From the NCBI GenBank assembly GCA_951406725.2, contig OX597832.1, forward strand, positions 56,110,001 through 56,174,000: DNA of 64,000 bases, read 5' to 3'. The stretch comes from Octopus vulgaris. Lineage: Eukaryota. Positions 10,767-63,911 of this stretch are shown here, in pieces. The number at the start of each line of letters is the position of its first letter. Within the stretch, counting starts at the first letter, position 1. The position numbers were made by a program, and so were the translations under genes. The notes below the pieces were generated by a model, which ran no database searches, was not told where the DNA came from, and saw nothing but the letters and a program-made list of their open reading frames with translations.

Positions 10767-11215
10767 GTCTATCTATCCATCTTGTATTTACCTCTTTGTA
10801 TATTTGTCAGCCTGTATGTTTGTCAATATACGAGTGTGTGTAAGTGTGTGTGTGAGAGTGTGTGTGTATGAGTGTGTGTGTGTGTGAGTGTGTGTGTGTG
10901 TGTGAGTGTGTGAGTGTGTGTGTGTGAGTGTGTGCGTGTGTGAGAGTGTGTGTGGGTGGGTGTGCCTTTTGTTCGTGTCGTGTCATGTCTTTGCTCATTC
11001 ATCACACACACTCGTACACACACGCGCACACACGCATACACATACATATACACATATACATATACATATACACACATACATTACATACATACTCACACAC
11101 ACATGCACACACAAACACACCCACACACATATATACATACACCTACACATATATACACATACGCACACACACACATACATACATACATATATATGCATGT
11201 ATATATATATATAAT
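8178..11215. repeat. Compound di/tetranucleotide microsatellite field
   Basis: (GT)n,(AT)n,(ACAT)n,(ATCT)n,(AC)n runs. Confidence 0.9.
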
Positions 11216-11369
11216 CTTATTTCCTCCACTTTCTCCCTATTACAATTCTCCCACCCTCACCCTTTCTCTCTCTCTCTCTCATCCTTTCTGGCTGTCTTCC
11301 TTATTCATTTAACTAGTGAGTTTTTTTCTTGTCATTCCTTATCCCCGCTCACCCCCCACGTTCTCTATC

Positions 11370-12330
11370 ACTTCCACTACCATCACTATCATCACCATCA
11401 TCAACACTCGAACTACCACTACCATTACAAATTCACCACCATCACCTCTAGCTACAACACCGAACCATCGTCCCCATCGCCTTACCATCCATTGCCAAAA
11501 CCAAAACAACCATCACTCCGACCCTACCACCACCACTACTAAAAGTACGTCCGCCACTACCAAGACCACCACTGTTATAACCAGCGGAACCACCACCAAC
11601 ACCATCGCTATAACCACTACAGCCATCACAATCAGCAAGCAATATCACTAACCCAACGCCACCATTAATCTCGAAGACACCATCACCACTCCCGTGGAAA
11701 AAAACAGCAACACCACTACAACTCCCGTAATCTCCACCACCACTCCTGCAAATGTCACCGCCACTCCTACAAGCACGAGCACCACTCTTGCAAAAAAAAA
11801 ATGTTTAGAACACTTCCGCAAAATCACCGACAACATTCCCGAAAACACCAGCACTACTCCCCGAAAACATCAACACCACTCCTGCAAAAAATAAAGCAGC
11901 AACACCACTCCCGAAAATGTCACTACCACTCCAACAAATAGCACCCATCACTCCCTGCAACAAAAAGAAAAATGGTTGCAACACTTCTGCAAAAACACCG
12001 ACAACTCTCCCGGAAACACCAACACCACTCCCACAAAAACATCACCACCTCTCCCGCAACACACCACCACTCCCGCAAAAAAAAACACTAATACACACAC
12101 ACCCCTGCAAACACCACCAACACCACTCCCTCAAACACCACTGCCACCGTTAACACCAGCACCACCACCACTAACAACGTCACTACGACTACCTACGCTA
12201 ACATCATCGTTGGTCCCCCCCCCACTACCACCACCAATGCAATCACTACCACGTCTAACACCATCACCGCTCCCACCAGCATCACAACGCCACTCCGAAT
12301 AATACCAACACGAACACCAACGCTAACGCC
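11370..12330. repeat. Degenerate (ACC)n-derived repeat with recurring caccactcc(c/t)gcaaaa unit
   Basis: Visible degenerate tandem units. Confidence 0.75.
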
Positions 12331-17047: not shown

Positions 17048-17798
17048 TCTATGTTTGACTTTTGCTTTATATTTGTACAAGTTGGCTCCAAGTCTCACCC
17101 AGAGACCTCAAGAGACAACAGGGTTGGAAGTTCATGTTGTTGTTATGCCTAGTGTGCCATATATTTGGGGGGTGGGGATGTTGTACTAATGAATGTCTAA
17201 AAAGAAAAAAAAAAAGGTTTTTTTTTGTTTTTTTTTTTTTTTAAACCGAAAATTATGTTTGTTTTAAACCTTGAGATTACATAGAGAGTATTTTGCGTAG
17301 GATATGAGCAGTTCCCATGAGCACTATCTTTTGAACTTCTGCCATTTTTGGGTTTCCTGGTATCTGAGTTAGGTAGCTATCAGCCCCTTTTGCTATCATT
17401 CCCAGGGCACCTATGACAACAGGTATTGTTTTAGTCTTCAGCTTCCACATTTTGCTGATTTCTATTTCAAGATCTTTATATTTGCTCAGTTTTTGGTAGG
17501 TCTTGACAGATACGTTTATATCGATTGGGACAGTCATATCAATGAGGAGGCATGTTCTTTGTTTGAAGTTTTTCAATATGATGTCTGGCCTATTTGCATC
17601 TATCTTCCTGTCAGTTTGAATGGTGAAGTTCCAGAGGAGTGAGATGTGGTCATTTTCAAGCACTGGGGGTGGTTTGTGTTCCCACCAGTTTTTTTCATAG
17701 GGCAAATCCAGGTTTTTACAGATTACCCAGTGAATATATTGTGCAGCTCTATCGTGCCTGTTGAGATACTCTGTAGGCGCTAGAAGACTGCACTTGGA
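17048..17798 (-). mobile_element. 5'-truncated R4/Dong-clade non-LTR retrotransposon (restriction-like endonuclease C-terminus plus 3' UTR)
   Basis: Open frame 17798-17277: YLNRHD...IHW...W.EH.P...LLWNFTIQTD...NRPDII...LIDMTVP...K..KY..L...PVVIGALG; both ends abut (TAA)n. Confidence 0.9.
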
Positions 17799-27638: not shown

Positions 27639-29375
27639 TAATAATAATAAAAAATACTAAAAATAGATACAGTTAAGTTAGCACCAAGTCCATCCTTTCA
27701 AGATCGAAATAACTATGAGTTAAGAAATGCTGACCACTAGGTAAAGAAAATTTAGATTAATTCGATTGGCTATTGGTTTGAAATTTAAATCACAAAAGAA
27801 AATTATACGGTTGGTTAGTCAAGGAACGCCAATATTCACACACGCATCTACAGATCAATCGCACATACACACATAGTTATATGTATATACATACACTTAT
27901 ACACATACATATTCACAAGCAACAACTAGCACTTAGATAAACAAAAAAGGGAAGCAACTATGCTAACATTTAGTCCTTCAAAATTATAACTGAGCCTCAA
28001 TAACAAAAAAAGAACCATCCATGCATTCTATAAAATATTTAATTTAGATATAAATATATTTTTAAATATCAGTATGTTACTAATTCAGATAATTATTTCA
28101 TGGGTAACTTAAAATTTATAACACCGGTTTGTTACAGAGTAAACATACGGTTGTTAGGTTTATCGTAAGTTTGTTATGATTTTAAGTACGCTAAATTATA
28201 AAATATAAAATATAAGATATATATTAATTTAAATATTATAAATAAGTCACTTATTAACTTAATAAATATAGTGCCATAATATACCAGTTTAGGCATTAAA
28301 GAATAGAAGGAGAAGTATTAATGTAAACGTTTATGAGAACATCACAGAAATTTTAAATAAATTTTATATTATAAAGACTTAAGATGAAAAGAGATAAAAT
28401 AAATAAAAAGGAATAAATACGAAGGAATAAATACGGTTATACACATAATTATAAGTACAAACTAGTATATATGTATTCATATATTATTAAAATTAAATAA
28501 AAATAAATGATAGATATGTATGTATAAAACTACACCAGTATAAGTAAATAAGTAAAAAATAAATAGGTAACAAATTAGATGACTTGATATGTATGTAAAC
28601 ATCTACACTTAAATAGGCAAATAAATAAATGAATAGAAGACTAGATGCAAAGATTGATAATATTACAATAAAATGGGAAATAAATAAAAATAAATAAAGT
28701 GAATATATATATTTTATATTGTTGAAAGTAAATATGTATGGAAGGATAGTTTAAAGTACAAATCCAGAGGACTATAGATATAAACTAAATATATGAGGCT
28801 GGTAATAATTATAAAGCAAAATGCATGTAAATGAGAAAAATGAAAAAAAAAAAATGAAAAAGGTTTATCAGTGAATAGCATAAGATACAAATTAAGGTGA
28901 GTACAAAAAGACCAAATATATAATAAAAACCTTCCAAATAAACACATACAAAAAACCTATAATCTCAACCTAAACCCACCAAACTCACAAAAGGCTCTCA
29001 TATATTACATATTATACAATATCATTACATTATCTAGAGCTAGGTATCTAACCAAGATATACATATATACTATGCAATATACTATGCAATATTGGAAAAC
29101 TTCAAAAATCACACATTACAAGGCAAATACCAAAATGAATATGTTATTTTATGTCATATTGCATTTCTCTTAAAAAAAACAAACAAAAACCCACATACAA
29201 AAACCAAGAAACCAATAATACTAGACACAATCCATTAATTATTATACAAATGTAGCTATAAAAATTATAAAATTATGAAATTTATAAATTGTATACTTTA
29301 GAATTATAGAAGACCACAGGTATATTTAGTTAAAGAAGGGAATTAAAAAATTAATAATAGTGGAAGTGCTAAGTT

Positions 29376-31070
29376 CTATTTGAATCTAGAAAAGGTGAAC
29401 GGTAGCCTATGAATACAAAAGAAGTTTTTCTCATTAATGTTGTTAATAATTTGCCGACCCGCTTTAATAATGAAGAAAATTTCATTAATACATAGAGAGC
29501 ATTTTTATTTTTTCCATTATACACAGGTGCTGAAGTTAGTATTTTCCAGTTTAATCTAAAATCTAAGTTCTTACTTTTAAGTTCCCAAATGTATGCACTT
29601 AGCCCTGTAGAGTACATTCTATTTTTATTCCTAAAAGTATATCTGTGATAATTCCATCTTTGTTTTATGCTATTCATAGTTGCCCCGATATACACCCTAC
29701 TACTCAATTGTGTATCTACAGTGCATTGGTAAACTACCTCCTTCCTGAGGCATTGATTACCAAATACACATTTATTTTTATTTCTGCAATTACAAAGATT
29801 AACAGAATGAGGAAATCTAAGATTGGACACCACCCCTATACTACTATTCACATTATAAGTGTTACAATTGTTATCATCATCCAAACCCAAAATCAACGAA
29901 TGAGTTAATTTCACATTATCGGCTATATTCCTATCACTAGTACTAGTATTGGTAGTAGTAGTATGATCTATTACATTTATATTATCTCTGACAGGTATGG
30001 TGCACTCATTATTAGTAAGGAGGTTGTTCCCATTTGTTCCAAGAAAATTTCTATTCCTATTATTAATGAAGAGGGGCAAGTTTTCCTGGTCTAAATTCAA
30101 TTTTCTATCCTTATAGAAGTGATCCAGTTTCTTGTTATTAAAAGAGGAGATAATGGTGGCTAGATTATGAGTAATGCTATATCCCACTCTAACAGTACCG
30201 TTGTTAATTAAAGGACTAAATTTATTCCTATCCTTACCAAAATGCCTAAAAATAACATTATGCAAAGCTCTCACTATGTTTGTTTTAATCTGCATTGCAT
30301 ACGGGATAATCAACCAAAGAGTATCCTTATCAGAATTAGGATTGCCTATATAATTAATGTTATTTGTAAAAATCCTATTCGTAGACCAACTCATAGGATT
30401 ACTATTCTTACCACTGTTATTATTGTATCTATCTATATCAATATTACCATGGTTATTGCGCAAGTAAACTTTACCATTATCATGTCTACCATAAGTTTTA
30501 ATTCGTATATTATTATTAATATTACTACTATTACCCGTATGCTTAGATCTATTTGAGCTACCGTTCACCTTTCCAAGGTTAACGTCACTTCTACATTTAT
30601 TATAGGTGTTATCATATATTCTATTTTTACTATTCTTATGTATATTGTTGATTATCCTAAATCTATTTGTGTTGTTCCTGATAGTTCTACCTCCATTAGG
30701 GGGTTCCCCTTAGGTATAAACCAAATCTTACTTTTATATCCTGCCTTAAGTAATGCTACATTGTATCTATCACAGTGTTTGTTAAAAATTTCCTCGTTTG
30801 AGGATAAACTAGAAATTCTCTGACTAATGCTACGCACTAGTGCATTTTTAATTTGAGGGGGTGATTACTAGAACGGTTAATGTATATTAGGTTAGAATTA
30901 GGTTTAATATAGGGTTCATGTAAACCATTAGTAATGTTACAATTAACATCTAAATAATTAGCAGAATAATTTTCACTTTCAATGATAATGGATAGGCCGA
31001 AGCTTTTAAAAAATTTATTTATTCTTTTTTTCAGAAGATCTAATCTCCTATTTGATGTATTCCTAACACA
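29376..31070 (-). pseudogene. PLE polyprotein C-terminal part: RT thumb + CxCx5C linker + GIY-YIG endonuclease
   Basis: NYLDV..PYIKPN..YINRSSNHP/P..ISQRISSLSSNEEIF; CNCRNKNKC..VVY..VYIGAT..KQRWNYH..LSAYIWELK..C.LC..E; three single-base frameshifts. Confidence 0.9.
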
Positions 31071-31146
31071 ATTTTGTTGGGTACCTATCTAGCAGTATAT
31101 TGGATATATATTATCCCATGGTGGGTTGAATTTTCAACCCCTATCT

Positions 31147-33556: not shown

Positions 33557-33923
<367 letters not shown>

Positions 33924-34212: not shown

Positions 34213-34247
34213 GTTTCTGAAGAAGAGCTTTGCTCGAAACGTAAAAC
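34213..34247 (+). ncRNA. Minimal type I hammerhead ribozyme
   Basis: GUUU-CUGAAGA-A-GAGC-uuu-GCUC-GAAAC-GUA-AAAC inside an (AT)n-flanked element 34150-34310. Confidence 0.75.
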
Positions 34248-34308
34248 TAACTTTCGTTCCTTCCCTCTACGTCTGTTAATACTTTGCATGTACTTTTTGG
34301 GATTAAAC

Positions 34309-51247: not shown

Positions 51248-51996
51248 TCTCTCTCTTTCTCTAGTATATTCTTAGCTACAATAGTGGCAACATGGATTTT
51301 TTTCTATCTTCTTGCTCTATTAGAGTATTTGAGTAAAATTAAATTGTGTCCAACTGATTAAAACTCCGTTTATATATTTGTGCTGCTGAGGATAGCCCTG
51401 CATTTAAATTAATGTAATGATAACATTGTTCAATTAAATGGAGCCGCTTGAAACGATCGTACTACCTCACTTCATGATATCCTGTTGCCTATTTTGATTA
51501 TATATATATAGCAAAACTTTCAAACACTAAGATTTGAAATAAGATGTCACTGCTGTTAATATCATCTGTGGCTCAAGTTTAAAATTGATGCTATCAACAG
51601 CAGTAACATAGGTGGTCCGCAGGCAAGTAGCATTATTTAGCTATGAATTACAAATTCGCACGAAACGTAAAGATGCTGAAAAGCGTGTGCACGCACACAC
51701 ACACACACACAGACATATATGTACAGCTAGGTGCAATGTAATACCATAAAGGAAATTCTTTTTCGTCACTAATTGTGTCTGAGGGTGTCGAAGTACCTAT
51801 ATTTCAAGGAATAAGAGTTACAGATTTAAGAGATTTTAACTCTTGCAATATATATTTGCAATATATATGCCTCGGCAGCGCCTGTCACAATTAATGACAG
51901 GCGATAGGAGAAAGCACTCGTGCTAGGTGCCACGCAGAGGGACTGAATCCGAAACTAGACGGTTGGAAAAGCTTACCACAGAGCTACGCTTGCATC

Positions 51997-59501: not shown

Positions 59502-59904
59502 GGTGTGTGTGTGTGTGTGTTATTGTGAAGCTATAGATACCTCTTGAAGGGATGTTAGCATCCAAGTTTCACCGATAAATCCTATGTATCGGTGAAATAT
59601 GAAAAAGGATATTAGATTTTCATCGATTTAACTGGGTATATTTTCATTTATGTGTAAGATAAGAAGAAAATGTTGAGTCTAACAATGACCACTCGATCGA
59701 TTATGATGCGATTCCTCGTCTGTGTCGATTTCTCACCCTGAAGAAATATTCTTCAAATCACGACATTCAAAATGTATCTTTGATTTATTATTTGTAATTT
59801 GAATGAATTGAATAGAGAAACAATTGTAGGTAATTTGAAATTGATGTTATGCTAATAAATTGATGTTTATCTGTTGATCTCTTCATTTTCTTTTTTATCT
59901 TCTA

Positions 59905-62210
<2,306 letters not shown>

Positions 62211-62394
62211 TGCATGCCTGATTAAATAATAGCTGATTTCCATAATCTGGCTTTACGGAAGTCCTCTAAATATCCTTATTACTCATTAGATTTCTGTGCA
62301 ATCTTTACAGCACGCCATCAGCATCAGTGCGGCAGCATATTGTTGGACCACGCCAAGGAACCTATTTAGAAATGCTCTAATAATGTACACGTAT

Positions 62395-62680
<286 letters not shown>

Positions 62681-62726
62681 ATATATATATGTAATCAAAA
62701 ATAAGCAACAAGAATGACTCCGGTAA

Positions 62727-62814
62727 TTTGGTACAATTGTTTCACACTACAACATTTTATTAAAAGTTGTAATTATTACAGCAGATTTAAGATGTTGAGT
62801 GCTCTTCAGCCAAA
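62727..62814 (-). ncRNA. Type I hammerhead ribozyme, complete core
   Basis: UUUGG-CUGAAGA-GCACU...AGUGU-GAAAC-AAUU-GUA-CCAAA. Confidence 0.82.
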
Positions 62815-63123
62815 AATATAGGTTTTCCAATAATACAAAAGCTTTTAAATCAAGTAGTAACATTTTAGAGAAGGTAGATATACAGATAAAGATGTAGTGC
62901 GAAACGATCGTACCAAATTACCGGAATCATTCTTGTTGCTTGTTTTTGATTATAATCACCCCGCAAATTTCTATGGATAACACCATACAAAATTCTGGTG
63001 CATCAAAATTAAGTACCATATTCATTTGAATCTAAATTGTTGCTGAACTTATATATATATATATATACATGTGTGTGTGTGTGTGTGTGTGTGTATTTGT
63101 GTGTGTGTGTGTGTGTGTGTGTA

Positions 63124-63156
<33 letters not shown>

Positions 63157-63157
<1 letters not shown>

Positions 63158-63345
63158 TTTACTTGTTTTAGTCTTTTGACTACGGCCATGCTGGAGCACA
63201 GCCTTTAGTCGAGGAAATTGACCCTAGGACTTATTCTTTGTAAGCCTAGTACTTATTCTATCGGTTTCTTTTGCCGAATCGCTAAGTTACGAGGACGTAA
63301 ACACATCAACATCGGTTTTCAAGCGATGTTGGGGGACACACAAAG
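63157..63345 (-). mobile_element. SINE family B, 3' half
   Basis: Tail match. Confidence 0.82.
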
Positions 63346-63395
<50 letters not shown>

Positions 63396-63911
63396 TAAGT
63401 CCAAGAACTGTGGTTATGATATTGCACTTATTCCTTTTTTACGGCCGTTTCGACAATGCAGGGTTTCAGATAAATATGGAATATAAAAGAAAATTAGTGT
63501 ATAATATTACAACATACTGCATGTAATACAGTATAATATCATTTATATTCATATTCCAGATATAACTCAACCGTATATAAATGCGATTCCATAAGCTTCA
63601 TTCTTTAACTTACCTTTTTATACTCCGAGGCTAATAAGATATCTCTGGAATTTCAATTTGTACGAAGGGATTCTTTACGGTATGTCTTTCGAAATCCCCT
63701 TTAATTTGATACATGCATACATATATATATATACATATACATATATACATATATACATACATACATACATACATGCATACATACATACATACATACATAC
63801 ATACATACATACATACATACATACATACACATATACATATACATTGGATGACATAGATAGATAGATAGATGGATAACAGACAGACAGACAGACAGCTTGA
63901 TAAAGAGATAA

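Follow-up and report, generated by a model that had tools for sequence, protein, structure and literature searches.

An inverted pair of truncated repeat copies in a (TA)n tract

The window analyzed here (64,000 nucleotides of Octopus vulgaris contig OX597832.1) is AT-rich, animal-type DNA, rich in microsatellites and dispersed repeats. Toward its right end, a 358-bp unit (62692-63049) interrupts the tail of a SINE-like dispersed repeat (62395-62546, plus strand; 8 alignable copies in the window), a (TA)n(TG)n microsatellite, and is flanked by (TA)72 on the left (62547-62690) and (TA)9CA(TG)n on the right (63050-63155). The insertion target was the microsatellite tail of the SINE-like repeat, which is an unbroken (TA)n or TA-rich stretch followed by (TG)n in four of the seven other copies listed. 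No target-site duplication can be read within (TA)n.

We delineated the unit using contigs from four public runs aligned to 376 bp (contigs only; likeness 80, share 5). The unit is real and larger than 62691-62952, the interval to which the initial annotation had confined it, and all of it belongs to one high-copy repeat family: each run covered 29 of 29 depth bins. It is composed of a 206-nt minus-strand copy and a 159-nt plus-strand copy, the latter including a 97-nt extension. Loose contig ends before 62698 were TA-rich in all four runs, as expected from an insertion bias for (TA)n.

The left copy (62692-62897, minus strand) is 5'-truncated, belongs to a subfamily marked by CAAUUG, and has the 3' end ..TTTTTGATTA, 40 nt beyond a predicted ribozyme cleavage site. 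Seven of the 32 contigs listed (7066 more are unlisted) bridge the hammerhead motif described below and the part upstream of it (62815 onward) with at least 31 letters on either side, and we therefore assigned the middle of the unit to the minus-strand copy. Within that copy, the segment at 62852-62897, 40-85 nt upstream of the hammerhead, reached a depth of 158,000 in run X1, compared with 5,600 in the intervening stretch; part of it is similar to the stem II 5' strand, and it is possibly a conserved element.

The right copy (62891-62952, plus strand) is 5'-truncated inside stem II, retains a GAAA half motif and the palindrome ACGAUCGU, and belongs to a subfamily marked by CGAUCG. The copies meet head to head in a 5-7-nt microhomology at 62891-62897 (TGTAG, probably GATGTAG), as located from loose contig ends. 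Ends before 62891, from nine contigs in X1 and five in X2, correspond to the plus arm's own upstream stem II, whereas other copies diverge past 62895 (six contigs in X2, two in X5) or 62897 (two in X2). Because loose ends occur on both sides, the two copies overlap within 62891-62897. The initial annotation had described a 5'-to-5' joining like that of Penelope-like element (PLE) insertions; the head-to-head layout stands, with its junction placed in this microhomology. No contig bridges the junction of this locus among the 32 listed (7066 unlisted), which carries no weight either way, and no single contig among those listed covers both arms.

Past the first family end, the right copy continues into the 97-nt extension (62953-63049, plus strand). 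Five of the 32 contigs listed, two of them probably from one locus, bridge 62952/62953 with at least 31 letters on either side; they differ from the unit at 8-14 letters and so come from other loci. The loose ends seen before 62944 and 62967 are similar to the family end. We infer that 62953-63049 is the plus-strand copy continued, an optional "tail" that reaches a second reverse-transcription start. Its own TGATTA end suggested instead an independent minus-strand element in tail-to-tail arrangement; we largely, if not fully, set that reading aside, as other loci bridge 62952/62953 and head-to-head joints fall inside the extension. The first family end is the center of a 12-bp palindrome, TGATTATAATCA (62947-62958), and might thereby offer UA for priming at (TA)n. 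Neither a reverse transcriptase nor an endonuclease ORF was found within 62692-63049. An 18-codon ATG frame in the extension (62973-63029, plus strand) may be the relic of an ORF start; of its six listed variable sites, five occupy third codon positions (corrected for three frames, p about 0.05).

A complete type I hammerhead faces a half motif

The left copy carries, on the minus strand, a type I hammerhead that is complete by sequence and predicted folding, with CUGANGA, GAAA, UH, three helices and an open helix I. Its 5-bp stem I is formed by 62814-62810 (5' strand) and 62731-62727 (3' strand); between them lie CUGAAGA (62809-62803), a 59-nt stem II domain (62802-62744), GAAA (62743-62740), the stem III palindrome ACAAUUGU (62740-62733) and a predicted GUA cleavage site between 62732 and 62731. 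That the minus arm runs on into a full hammerhead, as first proposed, is borne out: the strict type I motif occurs once in the window (62727-62814, minus strand) and in none of 300 dinucleotide shuffles of its 41,112 non-simple bases. Rfam returned eight matches at the locus (E<=10), none a hammerhead, a failure that the 59-nt stem II domain probably explains. Over the window, no hammerhead appears among the 150 of 545 matches listed. A pattern scan of metagenomes gave 0 matches.

The two arms, 62751 to 62692 on the minus strand and 62893 to 62952 on the plus strand, agree at 55 of 60 letters; each of the five differences is a transition. The left arm had been placed from 62691, but that position is unpaired and the arm begins at 62692. 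Because the arms are unlike at five sites, we rejected a fold-back sequencing artefact. The plus arm holds only the half motif GAAA-CGAUCG-UA-CCAAA, as originally described, with CUGANGA absent from the 110 nt upstream. The double change in the palindrome and the stem II difference (AGUGU versus AGUGC) are likewise present as reported, and further differences lie at 62718/62926 and 62702/62942.

Relatives and other hammerhead-like motifs in the window

A decayed relative with a CGAUCG stem III lies at 51373-51505 (plus strand) and shares the family 3' end, with (TA)n after it; its local alignment scored 94, compared with a maximum of 51 in 1000 shuffles. Other motifs suggest, from their sequence, several hammerhead families within 64 kb. 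A broken PLE-like ORF (29369-31100, minus strand), which we take to be Neptune-like by motif, encodes a cysteine-rich linker and a GIY-YIG-like domain (remnant at 29369-30709; ESM Atlas 0.95). The same strand carries, about 2.1 kb downstream, a hammerhead-like motif with a long stem II, a CAGCUG palindrome and then (TA)n (27242-27135). This ORF and its hammerhead are a different family from the 358-bp unit. At 34217-34250 and 33638-33672 (both plus strand) are minimal hammerhead motifs whose stem III is CG and which have an extra nucleotide before stem II; the latter has an altered core. More GAAA-palindrome-UH halves or decayed motifs (CAAUUG, CGGCCG, CAGCUG, CAUAUG) occur at 59738-59835 (plus), 63451 (minus), 39547 (plus) and 59237 (plus). 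A fragment among (AAT)n tracts (17277-17798, minus strand) presumably represents a non-LTR element's C-terminal nuclease region. Pfam returned 0 families for the two proteins searched, this fragment and the GIY-YIG-like remnant.

The family is abundant and head-to-head joints recur

Between 39 and 61% of sampled words from the unit were present in 20 of 24 listed runs, spanning nine studies and three organism labels; we took run X5 to be RNA by guess, and none of the listed runs is recorded as RNA. Summed contig depth in run X1 ranged from 5,600 to 1.27 million per bin, compared with 25-75 for single joint contigs, and while summed depth is not a copy number, this points to a family copy number in the thousands.

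Joints between left-type and right-type pieces were found at other loci, with varied breakpoints, in 12 of the 15 joints shown (23 in all), each represented by one contig per run at a depth of 24-75. The shorter side reaches 30 letters or more in only three of these 12, and short sides at low likeness may be spurious. Of the remaining three, one fits a family end running into the extension, one (62723>63051, opposite strands, run X2) would fit a head-to-tail tandem, and one fits an internal deletion. Since other loci carry head-to-head joints at other breakpoints, this arrangement is an inverted insertion of the usual kind reported for PLEs. Three of the 12 resume at 62915, two letters past the right arm's predicted cleavage site, which could mark ribozyme-cut templates or an alignment break.

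The palindrome change marks two subfamilies of one family

The initial annotation had proposed that two different family RNAs were joined. To place the arm differences, we compared the contigs site by site (40 of 56 variant rows shown), with haplotypes inferred from unphased column depths. Only the stem III pair marks subfamilies. At 62926 and 62942 the left-arm letter accounts for 94-97% of depth (X1, X2, X4), so both changes are private to the right arm. At 62744/62745, column fractions of 26-33% and 71-77% are consistent with AGUAU and AGUGC as the main pair of forms, and the AGUGU of the left copy is probably a private change.

The CGAUCG letters make up 4-7% of depth at the left-arm stem III sites (X1, X2, X4), yet the bin holding the right-arm palindrome reaches 251,000-423,000, indicating that both palindromes are abundant, amplified forms. 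In run X1, C at 11.1 accounts for about 54,000 of the left-mapped depth and CGAUCG for 11,000-12,000; if contigs span both sites, a form combining this C with CAAUUG is common. In run X5 each of the stem III letters reaches a depth of 288.6 out of 629.2, similar to that of the variants at 62752 and 62765, and the left copy lacks the variant letters at those two positions. The arms thus represent subfamilies of one family, not two families, and the distinction consists of two letters, possibly with a third within the microhomology.

We also considered CpG decay as the source of the palindrome pair. Three of the five arm differences lie at CpG, and ACGAUCGU becomes ACAAUUGU by exactly two CpG transitions. 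In two local repeats, however, transitions occurred at 17 of 300 CpG sites and 102 of 2385 others (CpG o/e 0.92), a CpG rate so barely raised, with both forms abundant, that we rejected this explanation; given such weak decay, two chance changes have p of about 0.003. The two stem III palindromes are therefore both abundant variants and not decay products of a single copy, in agreement with the initial annotation, and the arms were likely copied from two different templates.

How the inverted pair may have formed

The reading we favor, with modest confidence, is that a single PLE-type event produced both 5'-truncated copies, from two cDNAs likely templated by two subfamilies and joined by microhomology within (TA)n. 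A PLE endonuclease and reverse transcriptase acting in trans would cut within the TA repeats, leaving two free DNA ends that would each prime a cDNA. The first cDNA, copied from a CAAUUG template, would begin at the first family end (GATTA) and span the entire hammerhead over 206 nt; the second, copied from a CGAUCG template, would begin 97 nt downstream of that end and halt in stem II after 159 nt. The cDNA 3' ends would then anneal via GATGTAG/CTACATC and be filled in. The templates might be two RNAs, or two unlike repeats in one tandem transcript. A stricter form, which we hold only tentatively, would make the locus a fossil of two-template priming, in which one PLE complex engaged two subfamily RNAs, one per target strand, at different internal starts. 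A mixed CAAUUG/CGAUCG stem III duplex has a predicted energy of only -1.9 kcal/mol, compared with -6.4 and -10.0 for the matched ones, so it would be the protein, rather than ribozyme dimerization, that unites two such RNAs. The insertion works like that of a PLE; as the copy has no ORF and no autonomous partner could be linked to the family, it is a candidate PLE only.

Unlike arms would require no special mechanism if two same-family copies had inserted separately, in opposite orientation, into one (TA)n tract and were then fused by a microhomology deletion or 5'-end joining. The family is abundant and TA-targeted, and sections of PMC3846280 describe microhomology deletions as common in Penelope copies of Adineta. 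We nevertheless regard this history as unlikely: recurrent head-to-head joints with varied breakpoints (12 of 15 shown) are what primary products should give, the load of private changes is similarly low in both copies (about seven listed sites in the 206-nt left copy, two in the 62-nt right arm), and the junction holds no TA remnant.

Self-priming, in which one template folds back on its own antisense strand and the stem III letters change later by mutation or gene conversion, seems less probable still. It is the proposal made for head-to-head PLE repeats in PMC3846280, and GATGTAG at the end of the cDNA could pair, at 5 of 7 contiguous letters, with the left copy's own stem II strand. The palindromes do differ by just two CpG transitions, and a third arm difference is also at CpG, but the barely raised local CpG rate (17/300 versus 102/2385) offers little to drive them. 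Moreover, the left copy lacks the 62765 and 62752 letters that appear, from X5 depths, to travel with CGAUCG, and fold-back on a GATTA-ended copy would not yield the 97-nt extension.

Movement as a unit by a MITE-like DNA transposon, with terminal inverted repeats of about 58 bp and a TA target duplication, would account for the TA at both ends of 62692-62952 and for arms 92% identical, but it is largely refuted and very improbable, since other copies pass the junction into different sequence at varied breakpoints, the right arm runs on into the extension at other loci, and both arms never occur in one listed contig, so that terminal repeats shared around a fixed interior were not found.

The hammerhead is probably a passenger

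In the two-cDNA insertion that we favor, the hammerhead would be a passenger, given its predicted need for a dimer and its predicted burial by the inverted arms in read-through RNA. For the 88-nt monomer, folding predicts a probability of 0.78-0.89 for four of the five pairs in stem I and 0.95-0.99 for stem II, compared with 0.04 for stem III. With two copies, the predicted cofold minimum is a dimer joined by an 8-bp intermolecular stem III (-35.6 versus 2 x -13.5 kcal/mol). Dimeric PLE hammerheads have reportedly been described by Lunse et al. Predicted stem I pairing is only 0.02 in a 202-nt RNA without the opposing arm. In read-through RNA, the two arms pair into a predicted hairpin of about -96 to -102 kcal/mol, leaving stems I and II with a pairing probability of 0. 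Folding z-scores (-0.08 for the hammerhead, -0.23 for the right copy) are uninformative. The hammerhead copy also departs from most of the family depth in stems I and II (62814, 62815 and 62773), with 62814 and 62815 differing from 84-100% of it. The poor predicted fold in longer RNA and the departures at 62814 and 62815 make ribozyme activity at this locus unlikely. An intact core and the modeled dimer are what a selected ribozyme device or retrozyme, with cleavage controlled by an antisense half or a trans half-ribozyme, would be expected to show; we give that idea very little credence, since there are no tandem hammerhead repeats at the locus, stem letters depart from the family, stem I is predicted to be almost unpaired in the 202-nt RNA, and stems I and II are predicted not to pair in read-through RNA.

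Comparison with known systems

L1 twin priming resembles the proposed insertion in that each target end primes a cDNA and microhomology joins the two, but it copies two non-overlapping parts of one RNA. At 62692-63049, by contrast, the same 3' region was copied twice, probably from unlike templates.

The layout is ordinary for PLE-type repeats, in a host with very many copies, and the locus has value as a test case for how inverted PLE insertions form, which is called unexplained in PMC8557442, where inverted, 5'-truncated PLE copies with a one-sided tail and insertion into (TA)n are described. The self-priming put forward in PMC3846280, where overlaps at inverted junctions are described, predicts identical arms. 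Unlike arms are allowed by the extension of both target strands described in passages of PMC11167929, which report that both strands are cut and extended, that two internal reverse-transcription starts bound the tail, that the protein is predicted to be dimeric, and that cleavage is not needed in vitro. A single locus does not decide the mechanism, but two abundant, easily scored variants make the question countable from a genome assembly alone: if the two-template reading is true, the stem III letters are natural barcodes, and thousands of head-to-head insertions could separate self-priming from two-RNA priming. We found no report of subfamily-mismatched arms in a literature search, a weak absence, as most subscription Penelope papers and supplements lay outside its scope.

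The motif resembles PLE hammerheads as described in portions of PMC4209133, which are type I, have a 5-bp helix I, a long helix II and a weak palindromic helix III that favors dimers, and occur in many variant families per genome; the same portions attribute low activity to them and note opposite-strand hammerhead pairs 100-700 bp apart in Schistosoma. PLEs are annotated in Octopus vulgaris in PMC13282606, the main text of which makes no mention of a hammerhead. Non-LTR retrozymes, as presented in parts of PMC7229834 and bioRxiv 10.64898/2026.07.22.740005, are likewise short, non-coding, AT-rich, PLE-tied and equipped with a type I hammerhead. They are tandem 150-450-bp hammerhead units, however, whereas this locus consists of truncated inverted copies with no tandem array; a search of 62300-63500 for retrozyme-like tandem units found only microsatellites.

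The closest parallels in layout are insertions of endonuclease-bearing (EN+) PLEs (Penelope/Poseidon, Neptune, Naiad), which, according to PMC8557442 and PMC3846280, likewise consist of head-to-head truncated copies that overlap at the inverted junction, with a (TA)n target and a type I hammerhead near the 3' end. EN+ PLEs may also have a tail of 30-40 nt at one end; the extension of the unit described here is likewise confined to one end but is 97 nt long. The unit differs further in its arms, which come from different subfamilies, and in having no ORF encoding a telomerase-like RT and GIY-YIG endonuclease.
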